A DNA stretch of 64,000 bases from an archaeon (GCA_043814055.1 JBDRKL010000010.1:85433-149432), one strand, 5' to 3'; shown: positions 10,700-55,867, counted from the first letter of the stretch. Program-made: numbers and translations. Notes: generated by a model from the sequence alone, not told the origin.

Positions 10700-10820
10700 T
10701 TAAACACCCATAGCCAACCTTAGAGTATTCCTCGCGACCTTTTTCTTTCCCGTTTGTTCAAAAAGCTCGACCAAAAACAATGTTTTAAACACCCATAGCT
10801 AAACGCAAAGTATTCCTTGC
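10700..10820. mobile_element. hairpin insertion with stranded, silently different copy of DUF63 3' end
   Basis: 10700-10735 and 10785-10820 both encode ARNTLRLAMGV* on the - strand; spacer carries GACCTTTTT...AAAAAGCTCGACCAAAAA. Confidence 0.7.
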
Positions 10821-11576
10821 CCCAGGCCCGAGCGTTACGCACAGAATTGCGAACTTAATAAAATTCTTGAATGGGGTATCCCCCTCGGTCTTGTCTATTA
10901 TGTAAAGAGCACCAAGAACAACTATGAACTTGAGCGGTAGCATTACCCACGCGCTGCCTGCGAGGCCGAACAAGTAATTTGGGAGCACGTGCTTCTCGCC
11001 GTAGCCGTAGAAGTCAACACCCACAAAAGTTGAGACCGCGTCAAACATCGCGGCAAGCATTATCGCTGAGTTCAGCGGGGTGAAAATCTTCGGCTTTAGC
11101 TTGTACGCGCCGAACAGCAAAACAGCTATGGCTGCGGTGTAGCTGAGTATCTGCAAAGCTGCTGCGTACTGGGGAAATCGCATATTAATGCCAAACCCAA
11201 AAAGGAGCATGACGCCGATTAGGAACATCAGGTAGTGGTATGGAATTTTCTTCTGGAGCTTACCAAACTCCCAACTGCACAGTAAAGCAGTGAACGTAAT
11301 GCCGAAGACTAAAAAATATATGAGCGGCGTGACGTAAATCGGGGATTTAACAAGCTCGGCGTCGCGCATCACGCGCAGGACCGCGGCGAGCACGATGTAA
11401 GGCAGGGTCGCGAAGAAGAACCTGCCGTTTATGGGTATTTTCATCTTCTGCATAACCCTGTAGAGCCCGAAGACGGCTATGACTAGGATTATAGCGTACA
11501 CTGGAGTGTTGTAAATGTTATAAGGTACGTCATTTTGGAACACCGGGCTGATGAAATACTCGTTTAGGAATCCCAT
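10785..11576 (-). CDS. DUF63-family membrane protein
   Basis: YN.YNT..YA, LRV..DA, DAVSTFVGVD..GYGEKHVLP, LGPGARNTLR. Confidence 0.85.
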   Translation of the reverse strand: MGFLNEYFISPVFQNDVPYNIYNTPVYAIILVIAVFGLYRVMQKMKIPINGRFFFATLPYIVLAAVLRVMRDAELVKSPIYVTPLIYFLVFGITFTALLCSWEFGKLQKKIPYHYLMFLIGVMLLFGFGINMRFPQYAAALQILSYTAAIAVLLFGAYKLKPKIFTPLNSAIMLAAMFDAVSTFVGVDFYGYGEKHVLPNYLFGLAGSAWVMLPLKFIVVLGALYIIDKTEGDTPFKNFIKFAILCVTLGPGARNTLRLAMGV

Positions 11577-11667
11577 TTTTCAGAACTTGTTTTAGGTTGT
11601 TTATATTTCTTTAGGAATAGCCATTAGTGGTTAGCCAACGAACAGCCAAATGCCAAGAGCCAAAAAG

Positions 11668-13794
11668 CTAAGCTGTATCTGGTCCGCTCACCATAAAAAC
11701 CTTTGTAGCCCCGTCAATCTCCTTGTCCCTTTCCAATTTATACAAGTGTCCTGAGACCGCGGCTTCCAAGCGCTCTTCGTGAGTGATTAAGAAAATTTGG
11801 TCAATTAACTTTGGCATTCGGGTCTTAAGCAGCTCAGCGAGCTCGTCTATGCTTTGCGCGTCCAGGTTGTGCGTAGGCTCATCAAGCACAAGCCAGCTCA
11901 AATTAGGCGCCAAAGCCAGAGAAAACGCGATGCGCAATGCAAGAGAAGCCATTGTGCGCTCCCCGCCTGAAACCCTGCCCTCAACGTCATACCAGCCAGC
12001 TGAAGTCTTTGCTCTGAGCACGTAGTCCCCTGCGTCTACAGCAAGTTTAACTGTCTCTATGTCGCCGTAGGGGTACAAAGTACCCCAAATCTCGTCCATA
12101 ACCTCATTTACTACCTCTATAAACTCCTCGCGCAGGGATTCCTGTGTCCTTTGGAGAGCTGTCTGGAACTTTTCCATTCCTTTCTTGGTCTCCCCGGTCC
12201 AGGCAAGGTCTTTCTCGTGCTCTGCTTTCAGGGCTTTTTTGCGCTCAATCTCATCAAGCCGCTTCTTTTTCTCCTCAGCAAGGCTTTGCAGCCCCTCAAG
12301 CTTTGCTCCTATTTCGCTCTGCTTTTTAATCGCTTCTTCATAAGAATTTCTCAGCTCTGCGAACAATTTATCGTCAAACCCGCTCTTATTTGCAAGCTCC
12401 TCAAGCGCTTTGGTTTCTGATTCAAGCTTTTCAAGCGCTGATTTTTCTGTTTTAATCTTTTTCTCAGCGGTTTGAAGGTTCTTCTTCCGCTCAGCAGCAA
12501 GTTTTTTCTGCGTTTCTAACTCAGCCTTGAAGGACTCCAGCTGTTTCTCAAGCGCTTTAATCTCATCAAGCGCCTCGCCAAGCTCCTTGATTTGTGGAAT
12601 ATTCACCTCAATAGTTTTGGCAAGCTCAAGCTTCTCAAGCCCTATGCTCTTTAATCTTTCATTATGCGCACTAAGCAGTTCTTTCTTTTTCCCGCGCTTC
12701 AGGTCAGTCTCGCACAGCGGGCACGAATCCTTGTCGTGGAGTTCATTCACGATGTGCTCGGAGTGCTCTGCGCGGGCAGCAAGGACTTTTAGGTCTTTTT
12801 CTGAATCCGCAATTTCTTTCTTAAGATTGTCTAGTTTTTTTGAAACAGTGTCCGAGTCGCCGTGCAGGTTTATCAGGTCAGCGAGCTTTGTGTTAAGTTC
12901 AAGTTCTTCCTTGTTTTCTTCTGCCGGGGCATCAAGCGTTTTTTGGGACTCAGCGAGCTCAAGCTCAAGGGATTTGATGCTTTCGCTTAATTGTGAAACC
13001 TGCCCCCGCTTGCTCTCAATTTTATTATTAAGCGAGTTCAACTCAGCCTGATTTTTCTCAAGCTTCTTGAGCTCAGCGGAAAGCTTGTCCGCTGCGCCTT
13101 TAAGATTTTTAAGCTCTTCTTTGAGCGTTAGTTCTGCCTCTTTTTGATTGTCAATTTCTGACTTGAGCGCAATCTCTGCTTTCTCATCGTCCTCGCTGAG
13201 CATTTCTTTAATCACTTTCTCTTTTGCAAAATAGCTCTCGTCAAGCATATTTCTGACAGAAGTCGCGGTCTTGCGCGCGGCTTCAAACTTGTCTATGCGA
13301 AGCAGTTTGTCTATTTGAGCCATTCGCTGGCCCTTAGGTATGCTGAGAAAATGGTCAATCTGGTTCTGCTCTGAGTAAACAGCACGCGAGAACAAGTCGT
13401 AGTCAACGCCAAGCAGCTTGCACACCTGCTCCGTGACCCTCTGGGAATTTGGGCCCTCAATGAGCTCGCCGTTCTGCCTTAGCTCAGACACAGTTGTGCC
13501 TTTCCCATAATTTACCTTGCGCAAAACAGTGAATATCTCACCTTTTGCCCCTAGAAATTCAAGTTCAACCTCAGCGCTCTGCGCCTGCTTTGGCTTGCTC
13601 TTTATCACATCGTCAAGCTTGAGTTTCCGCTGGTTGAGCAAAGGGAACGTGCCAAAAAGCCCAAAGCTAAGCCCGTCCATTGCGCTGCTTTTTCCAGAGC
13701 CCATAATGCCGAAGAGCGCGTTGACTCCTTTTGAAAACGTGAACTCAGAGTCCTCGTGTGATTTCCAGTTCTTCAGCTTGAGTTTTACAATCAT
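11668..13794 (-). CDS. rad50: Rad50 SMC-like ATPase
   Basis: GIMGSGKSS, coiled coil with CPLC zinc hook, SGGE signature, LDEPT, ITH. Confidence 0.92.
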   Translation of the reverse strand: MIVKLKLKNWKSHEDSEFTFSKGVNALFGIMGSGKSSAMDGLSFGLFGTFPLLNQRKLKLDDVIKSKPKQAQSAEVELEFLGAKGEIFTVLRKVNYGKGTTVSELRQNGELIEGPNSQRVTEQVCKLLGVDYDLFSRAVYSEQNQIDHFLSIPKGQRMAQIDKLLRIDKFEAARKTATSVRNMLDESYFAKEKVIKEMLSEDDEKAEIALKSEIDNQKEAELTLKEELKNLKGAADKLSAELKKLEKNQAELNSLNNKIESKRGQVSQLSESIKSLELELAESQKTLDAPAEENKEELELNTKLADLINLHGDSDTVSKKLDNLKKEIADSEKDLKVLAARAEHSEHIVNELHDKDSCPLCETDLKRGKKKELLSAHNERLKSIGLEKLELAKTIEVNIPQIKELGEALDEIKALEKQLESFKAELETQKKLAAERKKNLQTAEKKIKTEKSALEKLESETKALEELANKSGFDDKLFAELRNSYEEAIKKQSEIGAKLEGLQSLAEEKKKRLDEIERKKALKAEHEKDLAWTGETKKGMEKFQTALQRTQESLREEFIEVVNEVMDEIWGTLYPYGDIETVKLAVDAGDYVLRAKTSAGWYDVEGRVSGGERTMASLALRIAFSLALAPNLSWLVLDEPTHNLDAQSIDELAELLKTRMPKLIDQIFLITHEERLEAAVSGHLYKLERDKEIDGATKVFMVSGPDTA

Positions 13795-13831
13795 TCGCCC
13801 AGGCTCTAATAAGGCAGAGTAATAAATAAGC

Positions 13832-16329: not shown

Positions 16330-16389
16330 AGAGATGGCTAGGCGCTTGAAGTATAAAAACTTAAATACCAATCTTGCATACGCAGTTCT

Positions 16390-17097: not shown

Positions 17098-17112
17098 GCT
17101 AGAAGTGCTTGC

Positions 17113-17184: not shown

Positions 17185-17203
17185 TTTAACAAATTTCAAA
17201 GAA

Positions 17204-18445: not shown

Positions 18446-18552
18446 TGCAGGAGGAGGGATTTGGGAACCTCCGCCTGCTTGCGGAGGATAAGCTACGAGA
18501 GATAGCGAGATTTGTTGGTCAACATTTTTGCGGCGTAGCCGGAAAAAGGTTG
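18446..18552 (-). mobile_element. hairpin element plus degenerate tRNA-Leu 3' end copy
   Basis: CAACCTTTTTCCGGCTACGCCGCAAAAA shared with 31857; 18446-18463 matches 18556-18573 at 15/18. Confidence 0.65.
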
Positions 18553-18641
18553 TGGTGCGGGAGATGGGATTTGAACCCACGGAGGTACTAAACCACAGGA
18601 TCTTAAGTCCTGCCCCTTAGGCCAGGCTCGGGTACTCCCGC
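18553..18641 (-). tRNA. tRNA-Leu(UAA)
   Basis: Cloverleaf, CAGGA-CTTAAGA-TCCTG, long variable arm, CCA. Confidence 0.95.
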
Positions 18642-19397: not shown

Positions 19398-19529
19398 GGG
19401 GTCGTGGTCTAGTTTGGTATGATACTACCTCGGGGTTGCGTGGGTCGTGAGCATAAGTTGAAATATACTTCCGAGCGACACGCGACAAATAGGTAGTGGT
19501 CGCAAGTTCAAATCTTGCCGATCCCACCA
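19398..19529 (+). tRNA. tRNA-Pro with anticodon-loop intron (GGG with C33, or CGG in shifted register)
   Basis: GGGGTCG/CGATCCC acceptor, GCAAG-TTCAAAT-CTTGC T-arm, CCA; ~55-nt intron with GTTGCGTG/CACGCGAC helix; adjacent to proS. Confidence 0.85.
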
Positions 19530-26607: not shown

Positions 26608-26730
26608 ATGAAATCACTTCACTACGCTTTCGCTTCGTTCAGTCACAATGAAACTTCAGAGAATATAAACAATAAAATTGCTGAAGCTTCATTGTGTTCA
26701 AAGCTGGTGAAGGAGGTGAAACTTTGAAAT
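26608..26730 (+). mobile_element. structured insertion between stranded ATGAAAT and new RBS/TTGAAAT start
   Basis: Hairpin 26644-26696 shared with tRNA-Lys intron; 26697-26730 shared with EF-2 leader. Confidence 0.65.
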
Positions 26731-27089
26731 TCCCGTGTGAAATCATAGTTTGGAAAGTCCTCCCAGCGATACGCGCTGAGATGGCGCGCAACCTTGCGAA
26801 AGAGGGGATGAACCAGAAGGAAATCGCAAAGGTAATGGGCATTACAGAAGCCGCGGTGTCGCAATATGCCAACAAGAAGCGAGCTGCAGAATTCAAGATT
26901 GGCAAGAGTTTTGGCCAGCGTTTCAAGGGCGCGGCAAAGCAATTAAAGGAAACTGGCAGCCCGATACGGACTGTGGAAGTGTGCTGTGAGATATGCCGCG
27001 AGATACGCGAGCAGGGCTGTATGTGCAGTCTGCACAAGGAGAGCTCGGACCAGCCAAAAGACTGCGCGCTTTGCAAAGGAAAGTGCTAG
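26724..27089 (+). CDS. HTH transcriptional regulator with Cys-rich C-terminus
   Basis: PCE.....LPAIRA..A..L...GM.Q.EIA..MGITEAAVSQY; GGAGGTGA RBS before TTG. Confidence 0.85.
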   Translation: MKFPCEIIVWKVLPAIRAEMARNLAKEGMNQKEIAKVMGITEAAVSQYANKKRAAEFKIGKSFGQRFKGAAKQLKETGSPIRTVEVCCEICREIREQGCMCSLHKESSDQPKDCALCKGKC

Positions 27090-31578: not shown

Positions 31579-31771
31579 AACAGTAGCAATTATATATTGA
31601 AACCTCCATTGAGAATGAGTTCTAATAGCCGAGGTGAAAACACAGACCTTAAATTTGGTTACTGTGTTAAACCTCGTCGCTGGAGAATATATAAAACGCC
31701 GAGGCTTGCATGCAGACCTTACAGTTTGCAACTGCATGAGTCGCGGCTTGCAAAGAAATTGGTTAAAACAA

Positions 31772-31858
31772 GCCGAGGTGGCACAATCTGGTAATGCGCG
31801 ACCCTGGAAAGGTCGTTTCCTCACGGATATGCAAGTTCAAATCTTGCCCTCGGCGCCA
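31772..31858 (+). tRNA. tRNA-Ser(GGA)
   Basis: CGACC-CTGGAAA-GGTCG, long variable arm, CCA. Confidence 0.95.
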
Positions 31859-32120
31859 ACCTTTTTCCGGCTACGCCGCAAAAAGCTTGACCAAAAAATC
31901 TCGCTTCGCTCGTAATTAATGTTTCTGGCGCCAACCTTTTTATTGGTTCTGTTTTTGAAAAAAGTTTGATCAAAAACTCGCTGACGCTCGTTATGAAAAT
32001 TGATTCTCCCATTTGACCAAAGGCATTCAAATTGCCTGGCAAGGTGGCTTCGGCTTTAGCCGAACGCCGCCTAATGTGCCGCCTGAAGTTGCAGGCGGTT
32101 CTGAATCTTGCCCTCGGCGC
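31857..32120 (+). mobile_element. mosaic hairpin array ending in a copy of the tRNA-Ser 3' end
   Basis: Two CAACCTTTTT...AAAAAG(C/T)TTGA(C/T)CAAAAA units; 32104-32120 identical to 31840-31856. Confidence 0.7.
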
Positions 32121-34184: not shown

Positions 34185-34362
34185 GAAGTTTTTTACAGCT
34201 TCGCTCGCTAAAAAAGCTGGCGAAAAACTAAAGCAGAAACCTAACTCTTAATCTCTATCTCAGCTTTTTTGGACGTTCGCTACACTCACTAAAAAAGCTG
34301 GCAAAAAACCGTGCCGCAATCAAATTTGACAAGCGGCTGTTTAACTCTTGATTTCTATCTCA
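34185..34362. mobile_element. two hairpin units with stranded, silently different copy of rpsJ 3' end
   Basis: 34241-34262 vs 34341-34362 both encode EIEIKS*; CAGCTTTTTT...AAAAAAGCTGGCAAAAAA. Confidence 0.7.
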
Positions 34363-34652
34363 ATATTAACGCCGTCAGGAACCTGTAGCCTCATAACCTG
34401 CCGCATAACCCGGTCATTCGGCTCAACATCAAGAACTCGCTTGTGAATGCGCATCTGCCAGCGTTCCCAGGTTGCCGTGCCGTTGCCTGAAACGCTCTTT
34501 CTTGTTGGTATCTTAAGAATTTTAGTAGGTAGTGGAATAGGGCCTGCGTAATCAACCTTGCTCTCGCCTGCTATGTATTTAATCTGACTGCAAATCTCAT
34601 TGAGCTGATTTATGTCAACGCCACTGAGTCTGATACGCGCTTTAGTTGTCAT
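34341..34652 (-). CDS. rpsJ: 30S ribosomal protein S10
   Basis: GPIPLPTK, RKS..G.GTATWERWQMRIHKR. Confidence 0.97.
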   Translation of the reverse strand: MTTKARIRLSGVDINQLNEICSQIKYIAGESKVDYAGPIPLPTKILKIPTRKSVSGNGTATWERWQMRIHKRVLDVEPNDRVMRQVMRLQVPDGVNIEIEIKS

Positions 34653-36232: not shown

Positions 36233-38422
36233 TTATTCAAGGTAATCGCTTGGCTTTGGCAGGTCCTCTTTGAGCCCTTTCCTCTGCCTGATTTCCTTCA
36301 CGACCTTCATCTGGATTTCCTGCGGGAGCTGCTCAAACCCTGCGTTCTCTGTGCTCCAGAGCACGCGGCCCTCTGTTGCTGAGCGGATATCATTTGAGAA
36401 ACCAAACAATTCAGCCACAGGCGCCTTGGCTGTAATCTCAGTGCTGTCCCCTTCCTGCTGCATGTCCAGAATCTGCCCTCTACGGGACTGCATCTCCTTG
36501 TTCACAGCACCCATGTGCTCGTCTGGAACTCGGATAAAGAGCGTCTGTTTTGGCTCAAGCAATCTCACGCCCGCGGTTAGCATAGCGCCCTTGATAGCGG
36601 AACGCACTGCTGGAATAACTTGTGCCGGGCCCCGGTGAATGGCATCTTCGTGGAGTTTTGTGTCGTGCAGCTTGACCTTTACCCCAGCGCACGATTCATC
36701 GCAGAGCGGGCCTCTCTTCATTACCACCTCAAATGCCTCAATTGCGAGCTCCATAATTTCAGTAAGGTGAACCTCACCCTTGACCATGCTGATTAGCATG
36801 TTCTGGCCGCAGATGTCAGCAACACCCTTTGCCTCGTTTTTGTCAAGTCCAAGCTCCTGGAATTCAGCCAGATACTCCTTCTTCTTGACCTTGCCCTGCG
36901 CAAGCTTGCCCTGGAATATCGCAGTCTGGAGGGGTTGCTCAAGGGGCTCAACTGTTATGTAGAACTTGTTATGCCTGTTTGGGCTCTTGCCCTCAACCTC
37001 AGGCGATGCCTTGTCAATGGTCTCCCTGTAAACCACAATTGGGTCAGAGTGAGTGATTGGAATTTTCTTGTCGTGTTCTATCCTGTACCTCCAAATCTCA
37101 AGGTGCAGTTCGCCCTGGCCGGACATCTTGTGCTCACCAGTGGCTTCGTCAAGCTCAATCTTGATTGCAGGATCCTCCTTTTCTATGTTCCTGAGAACTT
37201 CAACCAGCTTAGGAAGGTCTGCTGTATTCTTTGCCTCAATAGCCTCTGTAACAACTGGCTCTGCCTCGTGGATTGCTTCAAATGGCTCAATTGGATTATT
37301 TGGGTCGCAGACAGTTTCCCCAGATCTTGCTGATTTCAAGCCCATCACTGCGATTATGTTGCCGGCAGGAACCTTCTCAATCTTTGAGCGTTCAGGCCCC
37401 ATGTAAATTCCAACCTGCTGGGTTCGGAAATTCTGACCAATGTTGCACAAGTGTACTTCAGCACCGTCATACAGTGTTCCTGAGAATAATCTGCCTGTTG
37501 CAACATCGCCCGCTTGCGGGTCAATTATCATTTTTGTAACCATTAGGGCGAGCGGACCCTCAGAGTTGCACTCTGCCAATTTTGCCTCCATTTCCTTGTC
37601 GTCACCAGGCCAAATCTGAGGTATCCTGTAAATCTGCGCCTGCTTCGGGCTTGGGTGGTGCTTTACGACCATATCAAGAAGAATCTTGTGAAGCGGTGCT
37701 TTCTTGTAAAGGTTCTGCCATTCCTCTGATGCATAAGAATCAAGAATGTCCTTGAAGCCGAGCCCGAGCTTCTTCATGTGCGGCAAAGAAAGCGCCCACT
37801 TGTGGAACGCTGAGCCGAACATGACAGAGCCGTCATCCACACCAACCTTGAACTGTTCATAGAGCTCTGGTGTGCAGTTCTTGCGGATGAGCTCGTTAAC
37901 ACGCGCTATAATCTTGACAAACCGCTTCTGCATCTCCTCAGGCGTAAGCTTGATTTCCCTGATTAAGCGGTCAACCTTGTTAATGAAAAGAATCGGCCTG
38001 ACGCGCTCGCGCATTGCCTGCCTGAGCACGGTCTCAGTCTGGGGCATGGCGCCTTCAACAGCGCATACCACAACAACCCCGCCGTCAACAGCGCGCATCG
38101 CGCGGATAACGTCACCGCCGAAGTCAACGTGGCCTGGAGTGTCAATCATGTTTATGAGATATTCCACACCATCAACTTCGTGCAAAAGCGAAACGTTAGC
38201 TGCATTAATCGTGATACCACGTGCCTGTTCCTGCTCGTCAAAATCCATAAACAGCTGCTTTCCTGCGTGCTCCTCTGAAATCATGCCTGAGCCGGCGACC
38301 AGGCTGTCCGACAGCGTGGTCTTGCCGTGGTCAATATGCGCTATAATACCAATGTTCCTGATTTTGTCAGGCTTCCACATCAATTCCTTTACCTTAGCAA
38401 TCAAATCTTCTTTTCGTGCCAT
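36233..38422 (-). CDS. fusA: elongation factor 2
   Basis: AHIDHGKTT, RGITI, DTPGHVDF, diphthamide loop HEDAIHRGPAQ. Confidence 0.98.
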   Translation of the reverse strand: MARKEDLIAKVKELMWKPDKIRNIGIIAHIDHGKTTLSDSLVAGSGMISEEHAGKQLFMDFDEQEQARGITINAANVSLLHEVDGVEYLINMIDTPGHVDFGGDVIRAMRAVDGGVVVVCAVEGAMPQTETVLRQAMRERVRPILFINKVDRLIREIKLTPEEMQKRFVKIIARVNELIRKNCTPELYEQFKVGVDDGSVMFGSAFHKWALSLPHMKKLGLGFKDILDSYASEEWQNLYKKAPLHKILLDMVVKHHPSPKQAQIYRIPQIWPGDDKEMEAKLAECNSEGPLALMVTKMIIDPQAGDVATGRLFSGTLYDGAEVHLCNIGQNFRTQQVGIYMGPERSKIEKVPAGNIIAVMGLKSARSGETVCDPNNPIEPFEAIHEAEPVVTEAIEAKNTADLPKLVEVLRNIEKEDPAIKIELDEATGEHKMSGQGELHLEIWRYRIEHDKKIPITHSDPIVVYRETIDKASPEVEGKSPNRHNKFYITVEPLEQPLQTAIFQGKLAQGKVKKKEYLAEFQELGLDKNEAKGVADICGQNMLISMVKGEVHLTEIMELAIEAFEVVMKRGPLCDESCAGVKVKLHDTKLHEDAIHRGPAQVIPAVRSAIKGAMLTAGVRLLEPKQTLFIRVPDEHMGAVNKEMQSRRGQILDMQQEGDSTEITAKAPVAELFGFSNDIRSATEGRVLWSTENAGFEQLPQEIQMKVVKEIRQRKGLKEDLPKPSDYLE

Positions 38423-38507
38423 TTCAAAGTTTCTCCTTTTTCTCCAGCTTTGAAATGCACACAAAGCTGGAGACCTTTATGATGCTTTGTTGTGCCATTT
38501 TTTAAAA

Positions 38508-47325: not shown

Positions 47326-47326
47326 T

Positions 47327-47569: not shown

Positions 47570-47587
47570 TGCGGTTTTTACTATGAA

Positions 47588-48091: not shown

Positions 48092-49282
48092 ATGAAGAAA
48101 ATACTCCTGACAATGATAGGGGTAGTCCTGCTAACTGCAGCAGGAGCCAGTGCATACACAATTCAGGGTGGCAACGCGTATTGTAGCGGCTGCAGCGACT
48201 GCGAGGCCGCACTTGACAGTGATTATACAACCACCTTCCTGGCGCAAGGCATAGCCAGCTTTGAAAGCAACTGCATAGAATGGCCAAAGCATGGGAAAGT
48301 GCTCAACTGCCAGGGATATGCTATAACTGGTAATGATAATAGCAATGTTGGCATATACTTGAGCAATAAAGATGGCAATATCATAAAGAACTGTGCAATC
48401 ACGGATTTTATGAAAGGAATTTATCTTGACTCTGACTCAGATGATAATCTCGTTAAGAACAATAACCTGAGCTCGAATGGCAGAGGCATAGCACTGGACG
48501 CAGGATCAAGCAATAACAATATAGAAGGAAACATAGCAAAAAATAACTACGAGGGCATCTCGCTGGTTGCAAGCGATGGCAACCTTTTAAAAGACAATAC
48601 ATTGAACAAAAATACTCAAACAGGCATATTTCTTCAGGATAGCGACAACAATGTTATTAGAGATTCCAGTATGAAATCCAATGGCGAAGTCGGAATATAC
48701 CTAGGCGACTCTTCAAATAATTTACTCATAAACAACACTGTGACCAAGAATTATAACGGGATAGAAGCCCAGGGTTTTGGCTCCAGCAATAACATTCTAA
48801 ACAACAACTATGTCTGCTCCAGCACAAATAAGGATATTAAAAACAAAGGCAATGGGAATACAGGGGAGAATAACAGGTGCAGCAAAGACAAGAACTGGAA
48901 TGACACGAACGAAGTCGGCTGTGAGCATATCTGCATTGAAGACGTTATTGAGAAGCAGGATGATTATATCAAGAAAGATAGCAAATATTATGGCATCCCG
49001 TGGCTGAGCAAAACCAAGCCAGGGAACACAAACTCTGGACCTGATACATCAGTAAAAAAGAGCATATCACCAAGCTATGATACAGCGCCTTCGGAGACTC
49101 TAACACCAAGCTATGATACAACACCTTCCAAGACTAAGACTTTGCCAAAAAGCTATGATACGGCGCCTTCCAAGACTCCGCCGAAGAGTTACAAGAGCTT
49201 AACTAAGCAGTCCTCAATAAGCAAGACGAGTTCTAAAATTCAGAAATCATTTTTAAAACTTAGAGTTATTGTGAAAAAGTAA
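48092..49282 (+). CDS. secreted right-handed beta-helix (NosD/CASH-like) protein
   Basis: Signal peptide; GI.L..S.NN.I..N repeats; SYDT.PS repeats in tail. Confidence 0.85.
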   Translation: MKKILLTMIGVVLLTAAGASAYTIQGGNAYCSGCSDCEAALDSDYTTTFLAQGIASFESNCIEWPKHGKVLNCQGYAITGNDNSNVGIYLSNKDGNIIKNCAITDFMKGIYLDSDSDDNLVKNNNLSSNGRGIALDAGSSNNNIEGNIAKNNYEGISLVASDGNLLKDNTLNKNTQTGIFLQDSDNNVIRDSSMKSNGEVGIYLGDSSNNLLINNTVTKNYNGIEAQGFGSSNNILNNNYVCSSTNKDIKNKGNGNTGENNRCSKDKNWNDTNEVGCEHICIEDVIEKQDDYIKKDSKYYGIPWLSKTKPGNTNSGPDTSVKKSISPSYDTAPSETLTPSYDTTPSKTKTLPKSYDTAPSKTPPKSYKSLTKQSSISKTSSKIQKSFLKLRVIVKK

Positions 49283-49636: not shown

Positions 49637-49710
49637 GTCCCCTCCCCAGGATTTAGGAACGTCCGCCTGCTTGCGGACGAAAAGCAGCTTCGCTTAAACA
49701 CTTAGAAATT

Positions 49711-49884
49711 TGGTCCCCTCCCCGGGATTTGAACCTGGAACCTGCCGGTTTCTGCACGATGCGTATCCTTTGCTGTGCACAGGGCAATTGTTGCCCCGGC
49801 AACAGGTTAATCAGCTACACATCGTGTACGCGCAAAGCACGTGACGTTCTACAGCCGGCCGCTCTACCGTTGAGCCAGGAGGGG
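49711..49884 (-). tRNA. tRNA-Tyr(GUA) with 99-nt intron at 37/38 (49750-49848)
   Basis: GCCGG-CTGTAG|intron|A-CCGGC, BHB helix CTGT/GCAG, CCA. Confidence 0.92.
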
Positions 49885-50039
49885 GCTCTTAGATGTTTAC
49901 CGTAGTTATAGAGGCGTCGGCTTTAGCCGAACGCCTCCGACCTTCCTCCGAGGCCAGTCGGAGCCGACTGAGCCAGGAGGGGAATAATGGTAACCCTATC
50001 TAATGCAAAACCTTCTTTAAATCTTTTGCTCTTGGGGCT

Positions 50040-50594: not shown

Positions 50595-50793
50595 AGGGCA
50601 AGATAAAATTTCAGGGTATAAATAGGTTTGTAAAAGCATTCCAATCCGAATTTTTTAAAGAACAAATAATATAAAGGTGGAACGCAATTTTCCTACGACT
50701 GGGCTGGATCTCAATAGTTCAATTAACCCGGCAAGGTGGCTTCGCGAACGCAGTGAGCGAATGCCGCCTAATTTCCCGGGGTAATTTGACGCC

Positions 50794-51023
50794 GCCGATG
50801 TAGCTCAGCGGTTAGAGCGCCAGACTCATAAGTTCGCTTGTGAGTTATGACCCTTCGGGGAATGATAAGCGCGCTAAGACATCTGGAGGTCACGTGTTCA
50901 AAACAGCGGCAAATTCCGCTGGCAAATTGGGCCGCGTTCGGCTTCGCCGAAGCGACCCTGCTCGCATCCTGCGAGAAAGCCAAAAGCGAGTTTGCTGTTG
51001 AGAAATTCACGTCATCGGCACCA
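50794..51023 (+). tRNA. tRNA-Met(CAU), elongator, with introns at 37/38 (50831-50880) and 59/60 (50903-51006)
   Basis: GCCGATG/CATCGGC, CCAGA/TCTGG, ACGTG/CACGT; removing both inserts gives a normal cloverleaf. Confidence 0.88.
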
Positions 51024-51200
51024 AACTTTTTATTTGTTATATTTGTCCAAAAAGTTTGATCAAAAAACTCGCTATCGCTCGGTTGTTTGAATTTGACCGA
51101 AGGCATTGAAATTGCTTAGCAGCGCTGCATCACAAGTTATTTTGCAGCGCAACTTTCCTCCGGAGTTTGCCGGAGTGATCAAAAAACTCGCTTCAGCACA
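51022..51200 (+). repeat. mosaic hairpin array after tRNA-Met
   Basis: CAAACTTTTT...AAAAAGTTTGATCAAAAAACTCGCT; modules shared with 32011-32041 and 52916-52954. Confidence 0.7.
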
Positions 51201-51262
51201 CAGCGCATGAGCGCCGTGTGTCTCTACATGCTGCGCATGTAGATCGCTCGTTAAGAAATAAC

Positions 51263-52738
51263 TTACCGCCTCGTATACGCAGTCCTTTTTGCCCTGTTCC
51301 CGCCCTGAGGCCTTCCGCGGTTCCCGCCTTGCGGTCTTCCCCTGCCGCCGCCCTGCTTGTAATTACTCCGCTTGTTTTCAGTGCGCTTCATTACTGCCTG
51401 CTCAACATACGGCACTTCCTCGCGCTTTATGTCCGCAGCGGTATCGCGCTTGACAAATCCAAAATTCTCATAATCCCTGCTGGAGAGTATGTTTATGGCC
51501 TTGCCTTCTTTTCCTGCCCTAGCAGTCCTGCCTATCCTGTGAATGTACTGCTTGCTCTCCTTGGGTATGTCATAATTGTAGATGTGCGACACCCCTTTGA
51601 TGTCCAGCCCCCTAGCTGCAACATCAGTACAGACGAGCACTTTTATGTTCTGGGCGTGGAACTGCTGCATTGTCTTATTCCTCTTGGACTGATTCTGCCC
51701 GCCGTGTATTGCTATGGCGCTGATGCCATTCGCTTTCAGGTTGTCTGCAATTTGGTCAACATATCTTCGGGTGTTGCAGAATACCATTACAAGCCCTGAA
51801 GAGTTTTCGTGCTTCAGGAGGTGCACCAGCAGAGAGAACTTGAGGCTGTCCCGCACGTCGTAGTAAACCTGCTTGAGCATTCGGGGATCAACCTGCGACT
51901 CTGCAGCTATATCTATTGGAGCGTTCATGTACTTCTGGGCGAGCTTGCTTATCCCTGTTGAAACCGTTGCAGAGAACAGGAGAGTCTGCCGCTTTTTTGG
52001 GCAGCTGTTGATTATCCGCTCCACATCAGGCAGGAAGCCCATGTCAAGCATCCTGTCCGCCTCGTCAAGAACTAGTATGCTGACACATCTCAGGTCTATG
52101 GTTTTCCTTTGCATGTGGTCAAGCAGCCTGCCCGGCGTGCCCACTACCACGTCAGCGCTTCGCAGTGAGTTTATCTGCCCCATTATTCCAACGCCGCCGT
52201 ATACTGCAGTGATGCGCAGGGATTTGTACTTTGAGAATCCATTTAGCGCGCCCTTGATTTGCTCAGCGAGCTCTCGTGTAGGAGTTAAAATAAGCGCTTG
52301 TATGCCCTTGCCCCGCTCAGAGTTCTGGATTATGCCAGAGCCGAAAGCGAGTGTCTTCCCAGAGCCTGTTGCAGCGCCTGCTATGATATCCTTGCCATCC
52401 ACAACTAGGGGTATGGACTTGATTTGCACCTCAGTCGGCATCACAAAACCCTGTTCTGTTATCGCTCTGAGCACTGGCTCTGTTATCCCGAGCTTGCGGA
52501 ATAGTTCAATTGAGTCTGGAGCGCGCTCTGTATTAAGTTTAGGCGCGGAGTGAGGCGAAGCCTCTGCTACACGCTCGGTTTTGCCAGGCTGTGCCGCTTC
52601 AGTTTTGCCTTCATTTGGCATTTCTTTAGTTTGTTCTTCATGGGTTGCGCCTTCTTTTTGTTTCTTGCGCACCCATTCTGTAGTTTTCACTATAGTCTTG
52701 TTAGTCTTGTTTTGTTCTAATTCGGTCATTTTATACAT
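51263..52738 (-). CDS. DEAD-box RNA helicase
   Basis: ATGSGKT, PTRELA, DEAD, SAT, ARGLD, HRIGRTARAG; RG-rich tail. Confidence 0.96.
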   Translation of the reverse strand: MYKMTELEQNKTNKTIVKTTEWVRKKQKEGATHEEQTKEMPNEGKTEAAQPGKTERVAEASPHSAPKLNTERAPDSIELFRKLGITEPVLRAITEQGFVMPTEVQIKSIPLVVDGKDIIAGAATGSGKTLAFGSGIIQNSERGKGIQALILTPTRELAEQIKGALNGFSKYKSLRITAVYGGVGIMGQINSLRSADVVVGTPGRLLDHMQRKTIDLRCVSILVLDEADRMLDMGFLPDVERIINSCPKKRQTLLFSATVSTGISKLAQKYMNAPIDIAAESQVDPRMLKQVYYDVRDSLKFSLLVHLLKHENSSGLVMVFCNTRRYVDQIADNLKANGISAIAIHGGQNQSKRNKTMQQFHAQNIKVLVCTDVAARGLDIKGVSHIYNYDIPKESKQYIHRIGRTARAGKEGKAINILSSRDYENFGFVKRDTAADIKREEVPYVEQAVMKRTENKRSNYKQGGGRGRPQGGNRGRPQGGNRAKRTAYTRR

Positions 52739-52973
52739 CTAGAAAAATAGCGTTGTATGCACTTTTTTCTATCCCCGTCTTTCAACTATGACTATTTATG
52801 TGAACGGCGTTGTATTTAATACTATGGTAGGAACACCAAAACTTATTTAATCAGAGCAACGATTTAGTATGAGTTCAGTTTGGTTGGCAAATTGCAAAGC
52901 AGGATGACTTGCTCGGCAGCGCTGCAGCATCACCAAAGTGATGCAGCGCAACTTGTCAACTGAGTTCGCAGTT

Positions 52974-53048
52974 GCCTCGGTGGCTCAGTGGTAGAGCGGC
53001 TGTCCTGTAAACAGCAGGTCGGGAGTTCAATTCTCCCCCGGGGCTCCA
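52974..53048 (+). tRNA. tRNA-Thr(UGU), C at position 33
   Basis: GCTGT-CCTGTAA-ACAGC, U73, CCA. Confidence 0.9.
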
Positions 53049-53051
53049 AAT

Positions 53052-53219
53052 CAAACTTTTTAGTAAAAAAGTTTGATCAAAAACAAAAAGAAGAAACACA
53101 TTAACCTTTAACCCACAACAAACTTTTTAGTAAAAAAGTTTGATCAAAAACAAAAAGAAGAAACACATTAACCTTTAACCCACAACAAACTTTTTAGTAA
53201 AAAAGTTTGATCAAAAACA
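53052..53219 (+). repeat. 2.5 x 67-bp tandem repeat (palindromic core plus stranded gene end)
   Basis: CAAACTTTTTAGTAAAAAAGTTTGATCAAAAACA at 53052, 53119, 53186. Confidence 0.9.
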
Positions 53220-53239
53220 CAATACACCTCTGGCACAAT

Positions 53240-53701
53240 TTACCCCCCTTTCACCCACATTAAAATAGCCCAGCCGAGTTTTGAGAAGATTAAGTAATTA
53301 AATAATATAGAGAGCATTGCAAACTTGACCAGGCGGAACCAGTTTGAGCCCATAAACATCCAGATTATGTTTGAGACAATGTTGTAGCCAATCACAATCA
53401 TCATTGAGTTGAGCAGGAAGTTCTTCGCGGTTATGTCAAAGAACGTTGCGGCGAAGAGCGTGCCTGCAAGAGTTATGCCCATAATGAACAATCCCTGGAT
53501 TTCATAAGGGAACAGGACGAACGAGATTATCAGGATTGAGATTGCGAAGAGGAAACCCCACAGCGGGCCGAATGCGTAGGTCAGAATCAGGCCGAATGAG
53601 AGCCAGATGCCGACGCCCTGCATCTCAAAGCGGCGCATCCAAAACTCAAGGAAGCCGCCAATCATCACGAGCCCGATGAGCGCGAGGAGTTGGTAAAACA
53701 T
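53240..53701 (-). CDS. multi-pass membrane protein
   Basis: About 6 hydrophobic helices, FGP.WG motif reminiscent of ECF S components. Confidence 0.7.
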   Translation of the reverse strand: MFYQLLALIGLVMIGGFLEFWMRRFEMQGVGIWLSFGLILTYAFGPLWGFLFAISILIISFVLFPYEIQGLFIMGITLAGTLFAATFFDITAKNFLLNSMMIVIGYNIVSNIIWMFMGSNWFRLVKFAMLSILFNYLIFSKLGWAILMWVKGG

Positions 53702-53781
53702 ACTTGGGAATACTTGGAAGGTGTATTTAAGTTTTGAGAAGAAGTTATATATTACTAAATAAATAGTGTTGAGTCTAACGT

Positions 53782-54004
53782 GGGCTCGTGGCTCAAGCTG
53801 GTAGAGCATCTGACTCTTAATCAGAGGGTTGAGGGTTCAAATCTCCGCCGCTGCGGACACAATGAAACGCCAGAGATGTAATAAAATTGCTGGCGATTCA
53901 TTGTGAGGATAGCAGGGGGCTTGGTGAAAACCAAGCATTCAGCCTTCGGCTGAAGCCCCCCTATAAAATGCAGCTTCGGACTGAAAATCCCTTCGGGCCC
54001 ACCA
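53782..54004 (+). tRNA. tRNA-Lys(CUU) with 146-nt T-loop intron at 59/60 (53842-53987)
   Basis: TCTGA-CTCTTAA-TCAGA; BHB TTCA-AA|T ... TGAA-AA|T; GAGGG/CCCTT; CCA. Confidence 0.88.
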
Positions 54005-54127
54005 ATCACAATATCGGGGCTTCGGCAACAGCCGAATGCCCTCGGCCTACAAACACGCAAAGCGTGTTGTACAACCCGCTGTCGCGGGTTCGTACCTCCG
54101 CGGCCAGGCGGAGCTTCGGGCCCACCA
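54005..54127 (+). mobile_element. hairpin array ending in a copy of the tRNA-Lys 3' end
   Basis: CTTCGGGCCCACCA at 54114-54127 identical to 53991-54004. Confidence 0.7.
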
Positions 54128-54162
54128 AAACCTTATAATAAACAATAGCTAACTTCATACTC

Positions 54163-55452
54163 ATGAACTGGAAAACCCTTGCAGAAACAGACCCTGAAAT
54201 TTTGAAAGCGCTGAACGGCGAAGTCACTAGGGAGAACGAGGGGCTTGAGCTTATCCCGTCGGAGAATTACATCAGCAAGGCAGTGATGACCGCGATGGGC
54301 TCGATTCTTAACAACAAATATTCAGAGGGCTACCCAGGCAAGCGCTACTACGGCGGACAGGAATTCACGGACATTGTAGAAAACCTTGCGATTGACAGGG
54401 CAAAGAAACTCTTCGGCGCTGAGCACGCAAATGTCCAGCCTTACTCAGGAAGCCCAGCGAACCTCGCGGCTTACCTCGCGGTTATGAAACTAGGGGACAC
54501 GCTGATGGGCATGGCGCTTCCGATGGGCGGACACTTGACACACGGTCACTCAGTGAGCGCAACAGGCAAATTGTTCAAAGCAGTGCAATATGGAGTTGAT
54601 GAAGAAACCCATTTGATTGACTACGATGCAGTTAGGAAACTTGCCCAAGAGCACAAGCCGCAGGTGATTGTCTCAGGCGCAACAGCGTATCCAAGAGAAT
54701 ATGATTTCAAGGAGTTCCACGCCATAGCTGAAGAAGTTGGAGCTTACTCAATGGTTGACATGGCGCACATCGCCGGCCTAATCGCAGCTGACGCGCACCA
54801 GAGTCCTTTCCCATTCACAGACATCATCACGACCACGACGCACAAGACACTGCGCGGGCCGAGAGGGGGGATGATACTTTGTAAACAGGAAGACCGATTG
54901 AAGGAGAAGTATCACGCAGAGTCCAAGTGGAACCTCGCAGAGCTGATTGACCGCTCAATATTCCCAGGACTTCAAGGCGGGCCACACGAGCACACAATCG
55001 CTGGGCTCGCAGTTGCGTTGCTTGAGGACTCCCAGCCCGAGTTCAAGAACTACGGCAAGCAAGTTGTGAAGAACGCGAAACACCTTGCTGAGAAATTAAT
55101 GGACTTTGGATTTGAGCTAATCACTGGCGGAACAGACAATCACTTGATTTTAATTGACCTCACGAACAAAGGCATTGCCGGCGGGGAGGCAGAGGCTGCG
55201 CTGGACAAGGCAGGCATCACAGTGAACAAGAACACAGTGCCTTACGACAAGCGCAAGCCATTTGACCCGTCGGGAATCCGGCTCGGAACTCCAGCACTCA
55301 CAACGCGCGGGATGAAAGAAGGCGAGATGGAGCAGGTCGCTGAGTTTATGAACAAGGCGATTGCAAATGTTAAAGATGAGTCTGCACTCGGCAAGATTAA
55401 GGCAGAAGTTAAAGAGTTGTGTGACAAGTTCCCGTTGTATGAATTGTATTAG
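54163..55452 (+). CDS. glyA: serine hydroxymethyltransferase (bacterial-like)
   Basis: LIPSEN, EGYPGKRYYGG, TTTTHKTLRGPRGG, SGIRLGTPA. Confidence 0.97.
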   Translation: MNWKTLAETDPEILKALNGEVTRENEGLELIPSENYISKAVMTAMGSILNNKYSEGYPGKRYYGGQEFTDIVENLAIDRAKKLFGAEHANVQPYSGSPANLAAYLAVMKLGDTLMGMALPMGGHLTHGHSVSATGKLFKAVQYGVDEETHLIDYDAVRKLAQEHKPQVIVSGATAYPREYDFKEFHAIAEEVGAYSMVDMAHIAGLIAADAHQSPFPFTDIITTTTHKTLRGPRGGMILCKQEDRLKEKYHAESKWNLAELIDRSIFPGLQGGPHEHTIAGLAVALLEDSQPEFKNYGKQVVKNAKHLAEKLMDFGFELITGGTDNHLILIDLTNKGIAGGEAEAALDKAGITVNKNTVPYDKRKPFDPSGIRLGTPALTTRGMKEGEMEQVAEFMNKAIANVKDESALGKIKAEVKELCDKFPLYELY

Positions 55453-55499
55453 TAGCTCCACGAAAACTTTAAATACCCAGCAACTTACTTGATTGCACT

Positions 55500-55733
55500 A
55501 TGACCAATCAGCGACCATTTGATTCTTTGAATGAAGCTATCGGCAGCGAAGTCATATTGAGACTTAAGGAAGGCGGCGAAGTTCGCGGCACCCTTAAGGC
55601 TTTTGACGTGCACATGAATCTGGTGTTGGACAAGGCAGAGGAAGTCTGCGAGGATACCACCAAGAGGTTCGGCATGTTAATCGTGCGCGGCGACAATATA
55701 ATCTTCGTTTCACCGAACAAGAACGGCGAGTAA
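55500..55733 (+). CDS. Sm-like (LSm) protein
   Basis: RP...L, G.L..FD.HMNLVL, RGDNI; upstream of L37e. Confidence 0.94.
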   Translation: MTNQRPFDSLNEAIGSEVILRLKEGGEVRGTLKAFDVHMNLVLDKAEEVCEDTTKRFGMLIVRGDNIIFVSPNKNGE

Positions 55734-55738
55734 AGACG

Positions 55739-55867
55739 ATGAGCAAGGGAACAACCTTTTTCTGTGCGCCTTCGGCGCTTGAAAAACGTTGACGAAAAAG
55801 AAATTTTGCAAAGCAAAATTTCAGCCGCTCACGCGGCAATTCATAGGTAAAAAATGAGCAAGGGAAC
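55739..55867 (+). mobile_element. hairpin insertion with duplicated rpl37e start
   Basis: ATGAGCAAGGGAAC at 55739 and 55854; AACCTTTTT...AAAAACGTTGACGAAAAAG between. Confidence 0.72.

Follow-up and report, generated by a model that had tools for sequence, protein, structure and literature searches.

Short hairpin DNA elements at many gene and tRNA ends of a small archaeon point to a poorly described spread of very small mobile DNA

Genome and features of the window

The window is the whole stretch of DNA analysed here, 64,000 nt in length (JBDRKL010000010.1:85433-149432), and all locus coordinates are positions in it. It comes from a small archaeon (GCA_043814055.1) whose genome was assembled as a 14-contig metagenome bin of 0.98 Mb, 82% complete. 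At the loci listed below a gene terminus is typically present in two direct copies, with a hairpin-rich insert of 30-250 nt between them, and the copy that is continuous with the gene body leaves the gene intact. Two families of insert, module M and family B, are described in the sections that follow.

10700..10735, minus strand: displaced copy of the last 11 codons and stop of the DUF63 gene (36 nt), adjoining the stop of a convergent gene at 10699
10735..10784, plus strand: M module and 7-nt spacer at DUF63
10785..11576, minus strand: DUF63 gene with its working 3' end
18446..18552, minus strand: insert 3' of tRNA-Leu(TAA) (gene at 18553-18641), made up of an M variant, a short direct-repeat motif and a GC hairpin
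18446-18467, minus strand: displaced 3' fragment of tRNA-Leu(TAA)
26640..26731, plus strand: derivative of the family B start-codon element before an HTH regulator (26724)
31629..31771, plus strand: two or three hairpin units on the 5' side of tRNA-Ser(GGA), with 9 nt of the tRNA 5' end repeated at the head of every unit
31857..32120, plus strand: insert 3' of tRNA-Ser(GGA) (gene at 31772-31858), two M modules with add-on hairpins
31927-33, plus strand: 7-nt copy of the tRNA-Ser(GGA) end, between the two M modules
32099-32120, plus strand: displaced tRNA-Ser(GGA) fragment from T-loop to 3' end, 17 identical bases
34185..34340, plus strand: two M-like modules downstream of rpsJ
34241-34264, plus strand: displaced copy of the last 7 codons and stop of rpsJ (working end at 34341-34364)
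38416..38498, minus strand: family B element in EF-2, inserted 4 nt past the start codon
49637..49710, minus strand: 3' side of tRNA-Tyr(GTA), a displaced fragment (49637-49660) and a 50-nt hairpin insert
49711-49884, minus strand: tRNA-Tyr(GTA) gene with a 99-nt intron
49885..49982, minus strand: upstream of tRNA-Tyr, an 84-nt hairpin insert and then the first 14 nt of the tRNA once more (49969-49982)
51018..51250, plus strand: composite in which an M module is combined with other hairpin modules, lying between two genes on the minus strand
53046..53246, plus strand: three tandem 67-nt units 3' of tRNA-Thr(TGT)
53101-53117 and 53168-53184: copies of the end of a membrane gene within the 67-nt units (working end at 53240-53259)
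53782..54127, plus strand: tRNA-Lys(CTT), its T-loop split by ~145 nt of hairpins
55739-55752 and 55854-55867, plus strand: duplicated start of rpl37e, 14 identical bases
Within 55739..55867, plus strand: 101-nt composite insert at rpl37e, an M variant and two hairpins

The original prediction had named duplicated termini at 12 ends, and 11 of these were verified; at the 26724 regulator the element is present, and the gene-start duplicate sought there gave nothing convincing. Empty sites were called in order-level relatives at 66-75% DNA identity. Unfilled alleles exist among them at DUF63 (8/8 relatives), EF-2 (11/11) and rpsJ (10/11), as had been anticipated, and by this sequence comparison the inserts are insertions relative to these relatives. 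Modules were also found to cluster at gene and tRNA termini. The proposal that all inserts belong to one modular system did not hold: the shared module M is real, but at least three unrelated families are present, the third, besides M and family B, consisting of GC-rich hairpin pairs. Overall the original prediction was partly supported, and its three refutation tests, all of which were run, did not go against the idea.

Ends of protein genes

The two 36-nt copies of the DUF63 end (10700-10735 and 10785-10820) are 83% identical. The stop of the displaced copy still directly adjoins the stop of the convergent gene, an arrangement also present in a relative (G007), so the resident end appears to have been pushed aside and the working end to be the incoming one. 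Several order-level families have the same ten residues at the end of DUF63, at an overall identity of ~50%, which makes diverged donors of this end plausible. At rpsJ, one relative (G003) carries an unrelated hairpin insert with a second copy of 30 nt, identical to the first. Units 1 and 2 of the 67-nt array are each a minimal M with a copy of the last codons and stop of the membrane gene. A flank duplicate was sought around the composite at 51018..51250 and none was found.

The inserts at EF-2 and the regulator are family B, separate from M. Family B is a 76-nt lineage-specific start-codon element with short inverted ends and a 7-9-nt duplication, present in ~26 copies in front of ORFs, one kind of target. 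In EF-2 the distance from start to start is 76 nt, the ribosome-binding site lies in the hairpin loop, and the old start opens a 24-codon upstream frame that closes one base ahead of the new start. The EF-2 duplicate is only 7 bases, one copy on each side (38416-38422 and 38492-38498); proof of the insertion comes from the relatives compared, in all of which the site is empty.

Differences between the two copies were strongly biased at 3' ends, where 29/30 differing bases lie in codons that preserve the residue. The silent fraction is 6/6 at DUF63, 3/3 at rpsJ, 8/8 at a gene of 636 aa on contig C4, and 8/8 and 4/5 at 3' pairs in two other archaea. Under random substitution the bias has P=0.00015 at DUF63, 0.0029 at rpsJ and 0.0028 at a Methanobacterium gene (locus L079), and 0/20000 simulations matched the C4 gene or, likewise, a Woesearchaeota gene (locus L032). 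At 5' ends 1/5 differing bases is silent, and the rpl37e pair is identical. The earlier statement that copies of protein genes differ mostly at silent sites therefore holds for 3' ends and not for 5' ends. The best reading of the 3'-end pairs is the one that had been proposed, in which a gene end that underwent coding selection in a different lineage moves with the module; many events need no foreign donor, because the 5' pairs lack silent bias and several pairs are identical.

tRNA loci

The 3' duplicate of tRNA-Tyr(GTA) pairs 49637-49660 with 49711-49735, and its 5' copies share 14 identical bases (49871-49884 and 49969-49982). The 3' end of tRNA-Lys(CTT) at 53991-54004 recurs at 54114-54127 as 14 identical bases, with a second insert of 109 nt between. 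At the 5' end of tRNA-Ser(GGA) the sole repeat is a 9-base word occurring two or three times, which alone is within chance; units similar to these upstream hairpins are present in two relatives (G004 and G008). Two points of naming were corrected: the tRNA at 19398 is in fact tRNA-Pro(CGG) with an intron, and the tRNA-Lys that lacks an insert is the one at 47587, tRNA-Lys(TTT).

By eye, the inner edge of the tRNA duplicates lies in the T-loop or anticodon region. Displaced tRNA fragments at two loci (L057 and L084) show paired T-stem changes relative to the working tRNA, or match another isoacceptor. Seven module arrays begin no more than 8 nt from the 3' end of a tRNA, for which our own rough estimate of the chance expectation is ~0.005.

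Structure and distribution of module M

Module M consists of a 10-bp stem with a T5/A5 core, a loop and a conserved A-rich tail, and T5 runs are present on both strands. Pairing of the outer stem is kept, with CAA opposite TTG in 61/69 archaeal copies, a pairing that the search pattern did not impose; the one variable stem position occurs in three paired variants, and the module ends are sharp and conserved. Copies at different, unrelated loci have loop sequences in common.

This genome has 23-28 copies of M (23 by pattern search, against 0 for a reversed control pattern), and each of 12 order-level relatives has 0-3. In the window the tail motif was counted 8 times where 2.58 were expected, and 2/100 shuffles reached that count. 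Searching with a covariance model placed M in 37/141 sampled genomes, ten of them with 10-29 copies, in a patchy distribution across archaeal lineages. The suggestion that spread is confined to related strains did not survive this result, M occurring in many archaeal lineages. Isolates and complete genomes show this architecture too: it was found in a Methanosarcina isolate and in the chromosomes of a Methanobacterium and of a member of the Methanosarcinales.

A flank duplicate with a score of at least 30 was found at 7/23 M modules here and at 5/600 random positions. Most copies have no detectable duplicate (16/23 in this genome, 47/59 archaeal loci and 18/20 in other genomes). Duplicates at M flanks range in length from 5 to 63 nt, are often identical or nearly so, and in some cases include non-coding flank (L036, L056, L013).

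Search for enzymes

No element-type enzyme gene lies within or near the inserts, in agreement with the earlier reading of the window. Eight Pfam families (PF00589, PF00239, PF01797, PF07282, PF01609, PF01548, PF01867 and PF00078) were sought in this genome and none was found, covering integrase, Y1 transposase, TnpB, DDE and IS110 transposases, serine recombinase, Cas1 and reverse transcriptase (RT). Mobile-element genes are often missing from assemblies, which bears on their absence from a genome that is 82% complete. The tyrosine recombinase family PF00589 is also absent from 3/5 other genomes with high copy numbers of M, and these three, with 11-23 copies, lack Y1 as well. Y1 transposase was present in 7/37 genomes with M and 15/104 without, and in 2/10 genomes carrying at least 10 copies. 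No gene family recurs beside M, the largest neighbour cluster being at 3/80 loci. Large elements with a second copy at their far end were looked for within 8-kb loci and throughout this genome, and there were none. The enzyme in trans that the original prediction proposed is thus still conjecture, eight families having been sought here and not found, of which two are also missing from three further genomes rich in M, and a route through host recombination or repair is at least as likely because these searches were negative.

Comparison with known systems

Tyrosine-integrase elements resemble the present inserts in having a gene end twice in direct orientation, an incoming copy that restores the gene and tandem accretion, and in tRNA duplicates that span the T-loop or anticodon region to the 3' end; for one archaeal island in a tRNA gene, the available part of the source gives 44-bp repeats (PMC9897764). 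They differ in that the inserts here are 30-250 nt and not kilobases, with no integrase found in element or genome, and in that one module is here found on at least 10 targets, with some duplicates of 5-9 nt or non-coding. The cis-mobilizable elements (CIMEs) of streptococci, which are flanked by att sites and have no recombination genes, are what is left of ICEs or IMEs at one site, and their helper is known. Like them, the present units are non-autonomous, have att-like bounds and would depend on functions in trans, but they are far smaller, occupy many sites, occur in Archaea and have no known helper.

With MITEs and with REP or BIME elements the inserts share the character of short, multi-copy hairpin elements without a coding gene, assembled as modular mosaics. 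Terminal inverted repeats and many copies are a further likeness to MITEs (M with its 10-bp stem in 23-28 copies, family B in ~26). MITE duplications are given as 2-10 bp in the accessible part of one source (PMC11602168), whereas the flank duplicates of M are 5-63 nt and carry foreign-allele signatures, family B alone fitting with 7-9 nt at EF-2. A related autonomous IS transposase is also missing here (PF01609, PF01548, PF01797 and PF07282 absent, in a genome 82% complete). As for REP elements, these make no target duplication and need a Y1 (RAYT) enzyme. M has a hairpin and a conserved tail, yet has duplicates at 7/23 copies; Y1 is absent here and shows no link to M across genomes.

Free-standing homing-endonuclease genes in organelle genes bring a duplicated foreign C-terminal coding end. 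There too the donor rebuilds the 3' end of the gene and the old end becomes a downstream remnant, but those elements encode an endonuclease, while the inserts here have no ORF. Two other systems were tried and rejected: casposon or Cas1 integration gives a fixed duplication of ~14-15 bp, while PF01867 is absent here and the duplicates vary in length; diversity-generating retroelements involve an RT and a pair of template and variable repeats with differences at adenines, while PF00078 is absent here and the differences are silent changes of all kinds.

Models of archaeal tRNA intron gain via mobile elements are set out in the available parts of two sources (PMC3293823; bioRxiv 10.64898/2026.10.13.758758), and the same parts do not report tRNA intron families at protein-gene ends with flank duplicates.

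Origin of the inserts

Taken together, these short hairpin DNA elements, landed in many gene and tRNA ends, point to a poorly described spread of very small mobile DNA. The explanation that we prefer, while giving it somewhat less than an even chance, is that the inserts are non-autonomous cassettes of module and gene end which enter by recombination within a gene end, through host enzymes or enzymes supplied in trans. A cassette would consist of one or more hairpin modules, mainly M, that carry or generate a copy of a host-gene terminus, and this unit would recombine inside the resident gene end. Entry might take place through one crossover with a small unit that is circular or derived from a tandem array, or by one-ended repair synthesis off an incoming homologous fragment that halts at the hairpin and is followed by end-joining; either route would place the donor end on the gene and displace the resident end. 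The catalysts may be host proteins of recombination or repair, or else an enzyme that the assembled genome does not contain. Only very conserved termini (tRNA 3' ends and conserved C-termini) would admit entry from diverged donors, which would account for the choice of targets and for the reach across lineages. First arrival at a new locus was probably by another route, because duplications there are just 5-14 nt (EF-2, rpl37e, the tRNA-Tyr 5' end and the T-loop of tRNA-Lys); too short for homologous recombination, these resemble plain target duplications or the overlap regions of recombinases, which counts against the cassettes. So does a duplicate edge in the T-loop or anticodon region, which is typical of site-specific integrases, and no circular or free intermediate, or donor genome with the displaced allele, was seen.

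An unlikely but serious alternative is that the inserts are MITE- or REP-type transposons moved by a transposase or nuclease in trans, whose variable stagger gives a target-site duplication, the gene body being replaced later up to the insert edge. Family B fits this account in its short inverted ends, its 7-9-nt duplicate at EF-2, its copy number and its single kind of target; for M, the sharp, conserved module ends, the burst-like copy number and the many identical or near-identical flank duplicates, some with non-coding flank, speak the same way. The duplicates nevertheless vary from 5 to 63 nt, a range that no transposase known to us produces. No transposase family is present here and Y1 is unlinked to M; at least five times independently, allele replacement would have had to stop precisely where the insert begins, and the displaced copy differs at 14-18% of bases without the non-silent drift that a non-coding target duplication of such an age should show. 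The classical att layout, in which direct repeats contain a gene 3' end and the incoming end restores the gene, suggests instead scars or miniatures of larger tyrosine-integrase elements (viruses or plasmids), each with its own gene end and with M beside the att site, the interior having been lost or att-only minicircles having been mobilised by a helper in the manner of bacterial CIMEs. Duplicates that begin, by eye, in the T-loop or anticodon region, tandem arrays resembling repeated integration and loop-sized duplicates of 5-9 nt that suit an overlap region agree with this; we still hold it to be rather improbable, given that neither this genome nor three others with 11-23 copies has a tyrosine recombinase, that one module on at least 10 targets would require as many integrase specificities, and that independent deletions must all have stopped at the same module edge. 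Neither the 8-kb loci nor this whole genome yielded a large element with a second copy, and some duplicates are purely non-coding flank (L056).

A comparably low probability is assigned to the view that the modules do not move and act as signals for the host, for instance as tRNA trailers or as terminators working in both directions, and that duplicates arise locally at their hairpins through replication slippage, unequal crossing-over or aborted repair. T5 runs on both strands just past tRNAs and between convergent genes would suit a terminator, as would tandem arrays of identical units, the like use of different hairpins by different lineages (the unrelated hairpin at rpsJ in G003) and the failure to find an enzyme. 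Local duplication, however, cannot yield copies that differ at silent sites only; M is patchy, burst-like and not conserved at orthologous sites (12 relatives have 0-3 copies each, this genome 23-28), has loop sequences common to copies at unrelated loci, and occurs at gene 5' ends and, in M-led composites, as tRNA introns, where a terminator would harm. An assembly artefact, with variants from different strains of the metagenome fused in tandem around palindromes, is very improbable: the genome is a 14-contig metagenome bin and the two copies do look like two alleles, but the same module and layout recur in independent assemblies, including complete chromosomes and isolates, and the inserts have a specific conserved sequence and regular arrays.

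A further claim, that the inserts form an undescribed class of mobile DNA, is put forward tentatively and as doubtful: hairpin modules of ~30 nt without an enzyme of their own would travel attached to the copied, conserved terminus of a gene or tRNA, enter the homologous terminus of a new genome and replace it, leaving the old end behind. Were such a class to exist, the near-identity of tRNA termini across Archaea would permit crossing between distant lineages, and copies landing in tRNA loops would turn into new tRNA introns.

Introns in tRNA-Gly and tRNA-Met

With introns allowed, ARAGORN placed a 106-nt intron in tRNA-Gly(GCC) and a 109-nt intron in tRNA-Met(CAT) of this genome, each of which begins with M. 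In both, the whole putative intron at position 37/38 is an M-led composite insert, a likeness to archaeal tRNA introns, and the tRNAs are otherwise complete. By eye, the anticodon loop can pair with the intron 3' end in a 4-bp helix, a candidate for part of a bulge-helix-bulge (BHB) splice motif. In another genome (G110), M lies inside a tRNA call. The composite at rpl37e has, by eye, the same layout as the tRNA-Gly and tRNA-Met introns.

Gene termini present twice around hairpin-rich inserts

The original prediction described hairpin-rich inserts of 50-250 bp at ten genes, each enclosed by two copies of a gene terminus. Inspection of the genes named and a repeat search showed this layout, with the copies in direct orientation. 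The copy joined to the gene body is referred to below as the working copy, and the second terminus beyond the insert as the displaced copy.

Gene termini present in two direct copies
3' ends of protein genes: DUF63, rpsJ and the 53240 membrane gene
3' ends of tRNA genes: tRNA-Leu(TAA), tRNA-Ser(GGA), tRNA-Tyr(GTA) and tRNA-Lys(CTT)
5' ends: rpl37e (14 identical bases), tRNA-Tyr (14 identical bases) and EF-2 (7 bases)
5' end of tRNA-Ser: a 9-base word, weak alone

At the 26724 regulator, also counted among the duplicated starts, the element is present but a convincing duplicate of the gene start was not found. No insert is present at tRNA-Lys(TTT) (47587), and the tRNA at 19398, which bears an intron, is correctly named tRNA-Pro(CGG). 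The shared hairpin module (M) occurs in 23 copies in the genome under study (G000), against none for the reversed pattern. A flank duplicate scoring at least 30 accompanies 7 of the 23 copies versus 5 of 600 random positions, and seven module arrays start within 8 nt of a tRNA 3' end.

In tRNA-Lys(CTT) (window 53782-54004) the T-loop is split by approximately 145 nt of hairpins with a short loop duplicate at both edges; the gene either has an unusual intron or is dead. Upstream of tRNA-Ser (window 31629-31771) lie repeated units, each headed by the first bases of the tRNA and carrying a similar hairpin. Similar units are found in two order-level relatives (L200 in G004 and L202 in G008), both from a single other family of the order, and may be conserved or recurrent.

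Insertion relative to order-level relatives

The archaeal genome G000 (979,685 bases in 14 contigs, 46-47% G+C, estimated completeness 82%) is the sole member of its own family in the species collection, and its nearest neighbours are 12 order-level relatives at 66-75% DNA identity. The window lies on contig C10 and holds ribosomal-protein, EF-2/EF-1alpha and RNA-polymerase genes, one 5S rRNA and several tRNAs. A query with 9.9 kb of it listed no public sequencing run. Rfam at the gathering threshold returned only tRNAs and the 5S rRNA, with chance-level matches only in the tRNA-Ser insert region, and a metagenome scan using a neighbouring protein as query returned relatives of at most 58% identity, with modules in none.

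Empty sites, which the predicted insertions called for, were present in the order-level relatives. Downstream of DUF63, eight of eight relatives had neither the module nor a second copy. The 76-nt element at EF-2, sited 4 nt after the start codon in G000, was in none of 11 relatives, and in 9 of these 11 EF-2 starts a few bases past the stop of the upstream gene. At rpsJ, 10 of 11 relatives were empty. The exception, G003 (L195), has its own unrelated hairpin insert of approximately 95 nt downstream of rpsJ. Beyond this insert the rpsJ end recurs as an identical stretch of 30 nt, closed by another stop codon. The rpsJ end was struck independently in another family, so the habit predates any single module and reaches beyond it. 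At these genes DNA was inserted, the terminus was duplicated directly and the gene was preserved. The displaced DUF63 copy adjoins the stop of the convergent neighbour, as the DUF63 end does in the relative G007, which indicates that the resident end was shoved aside and that the end now used arrived with the module.

Coding history of the duplicated ends

Coding pairs were set in frame and each differing base was classed by its effect on the residue. Across the 3'-end pairs 30 bases differ, of which 29 lie in codons still specifying the same residue, and several two-step synonymous switches were seen in Leu and Arg codons.

Silent differences between working and displaced copies at 3' ends
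DUF63: 6/6
rpsJ: 3/3
636-aa gene on contig C4: 8/8 over 18 codons and the stop
Woesearchaeota gene: 8/8
Methanobacterium gene: 4/5

When bases of the working copy were substituted at random, this silence recurred in at most 0.3% of trials per gene. A freely drifting non-coding copy would lose it, so the displaced 3' copy was recently a working gene end, and both copies at 3' ends have a coding history. The original prediction had extended silent-site bias to protein genes at either end; it holds at 3' ends but not at 5' ends, where one of five differing bases was silent and several pairs were identical. The last ten residues of DUF63 are identical across several order-level families, with only about half of residues shared overall, and given this identity a diverged donor for the 3' end is plausible. 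Displaced tRNA fragments with paired T-stem changes, or derived from another isoacceptor, were found in two other archaea and are the tRNA counterpart of the silent coding differences.

Families of inserts

A single system had been proposed; in a self-comparison of the genome the inserts fall into three families or more. In family A (M), a 10-bp stem with a T5/A5 core encloses a loop of 3-45 nt. A conserved A-rich tail completes the module, and additional small hairpins often follow.

Family B, a start-codon element, numbers approximately 26 copies directly upstream of ORFs in G000 and was found in none of the 12 order-level relatives searched. The old ribosome-binding site and start codon are retained upstream, and a new ribosome-binding site lies in the hairpin loop. 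The start-to-start distance is 76 nt in 13 copies; in 10 copies of this spacing a 24-codon frame opens at the old start and closes a single base short of the new one, and three longer composite copies also keep the 24-codon frame open. Judged from sequence, the layout looks built for translational coupling; with its new ribosome-binding site and this closely spaced upstream frame, the element amounts to a natural expression cassette.

Family C consists of paired GC-rich hairpins and lies in frame inside long ORFs at three or more places, where it adds approximately 19 similar residues and resembles Rickettsia palindromic elements.

Copies of families B and C in G000
window 38416-38498: family B
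C13:5760-5854: family B
C11:9160-9251: family B
C9:26241-26297, C4:112790-112841 and C4:24812-24899: family C, in frame in ORFs of 222-502 codons

Distribution of M

A pattern scan of one genome per species matched at least 114 stretches; 80 loci were retrieved among them, 59 of these archaeal by title. Archaeal loci among the matches listed came from Methanosarcina, Methanobacteriaceae, Methanomicrobiales, Woesearchaeota, Micrarchaeota, Altiarchaeota, Iainarchaeota, Nanohaloarchaeota, Thaumarchaeota and Thermoproteota, and the order flank duplicate, module, flank was found at 12 of the 59 archaeal loci among the matches listed (one more low-complexity match was dropped). In 61 of 69 archaeal copies the stem is completed by the three bases that the search pattern left free, and the variable stem pair occurs as three paired variants and one recurrent mismatch.

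A covariance model made from 20 minimal copies found M in 37 of 141 sampled archaeal genomes (29 of 101 genera), with 10-29 copies in ten genomes and 0-3 copies in each of the 12 order-level relatives. M extends beyond the spread between related strains that had been proposed and occurs patchily in many archaeal lineages. Modules at unrelated loci are related as by copy-and-paste, and their spread across lineages is patchy and burst-like. In G066, the genome with most copies of any (29), M lies mid-way in a longer repeat with flanks conserved on both sides (L212, L213, L217 and L218).

M and tRNA introns

tRNA calling in G000 gave 23 tRNAs without introns and 40 when introns of up to 300 nt were allowed; 17 of the 40 have introns (24-193 nt), the longest in tRNA-Trp (C6:51029-51297), directly 3' of which lies an M module. 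In tRNA-Gly(GCC) and tRNA-Met(CAT) the whole intron at position 37/38 is an M-led composite insert, and the insert at the start of rpl37e is, by eye, the same three-hairpin composite. Among the 20 best M copies in eight other genomes, four adjoin a called tRNA 3' end, one is inside a tRNA and two are flanked by duplicates where a tRNA ends. A 2026 bioRxiv preprint (10.64898/2026.10.13.758758) describes the arrival route of archaeal tRNA introns as open. M would be a concrete and testable source for such introns: it leads two whole introns in G000, and it is also found next to tRNA 3' ends in several lineages and at the ends of protein genes.

Enzymes and proposed mode of insertion

An enzyme acting in trans had been inferred. 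Searches with eight Pfam families in the 82%-complete G000 found no tyrosine or serine recombinase, Y1 transposase, TnpB, DDE or IS110 transposase, Cas1 or reverse transcriptase. Tyrosine recombinase was not found in three other genomes with 11-23 M copies either; together with G000 they make four genomes, of 11-28 copies each, in which neither integrase nor Y1 transposase was found. All genomes searched are somewhat incomplete, and absence here means not found. Genomes with M encode Y1 transposase no more often (7 of 37) than genomes without M (15 of 104). No recurrent gene family near M was seen across the 80 loci, and no distant second flank copy, as a large element would leave, was seen within the loci or in G000.

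The layout originally predicted is genuine and occurs more generally than the original prediction could show, and the inserts are best classed as non-autonomous integrative or mobile elements. In our leading account, which we rate at slightly less than even odds, module and gene end enter together as one unit through recombination inside the gene end. This could proceed by a single crossover with a small circle, for which tandem arrays are a possible origin, or by one-ended repair synthesis on an incoming homologous fragment that would halt at the hairpin and be followed by end-joining; either route would give the order resident end, module, donor end. Such recombination would yield duplicates of variable length, tandem arrays, no element enzyme and a preference for very conserved termini. 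It does not explain the 5-14-nt duplicates, the first arrival of a module at a new locus, or tRNA duplicates that start, by eye, in the T-loop or anticodon region; such starts are typical of site-specific integrases and keep in play a reading of the inserts as scars or minicircle derivatives of integrase-borne elements, which we consider improbable. Transposition in which the cuts are staggered over wide distances and alleles are exchanged later is a further rival, which we rate as unlikely. Host terminator hairpins with local slippage are likewise given little weight, and an assembly artefact is most improbable, as the same layout is found in complete chromosomes and isolates. We give a fair chance, though less than even, to the inserts forming a new class, enzyme-free and homology-guided, that also seeds tRNA introns.

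In organelles, homing-endonuclease genes carry an incoming gene end that restores the target, a logic like that of the inserts here. Integrative elements share this logic, but no integrase was found here. MITEs and REP/BIMEs have the same tiny, modular, gene-less hairpin form, but the duplication here is not fixed and short as in MITEs, and the Y1 enzyme of REP/BIMEs was not found. Membership in integrative elements, MITEs and REP/BIMEs each fails on at least one tested defining feature. The open-access text searched yielded no description of M, nor of hairpin inserts that lie between diverged copies of a gene end.

If recombination inside gene ends is correct, very small non-coding DNA colonises the most compact genomes harmlessly by duplicating or importing the gene end that it interrupts, and may need no enzyme of its own to do so. 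Displaced gene ends would then be dated fossils of gene flow among diverged archaea. On any reading, the tRNA and gene-end fragments that the inserts leave are misleading to annotation.

Other hairpins and repeats

In Clostridia gut and rumen bins (L021, L029, L051, L061 and L067) an M-like hairpin is complete, with the outer stem bases that 10 of 22 bacterial copies have; either cross-domain transfer or mere resemblance may account for it. In IMG/VR, contigs that carry giant-virus bin labels (L154-L191) hold tandem arrays of 31-37-nt units that match the M search pattern. These were set aside, with outer stem bases in 3 of 69 copies and a base combination not seen in archaeal loci, and are probably an unrelated AT-rich hairpin repeat. 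In G000, the ORF at 48092-49282 contains three tandem units of 36-42 nt, 80% identical, at window 49059-49177.
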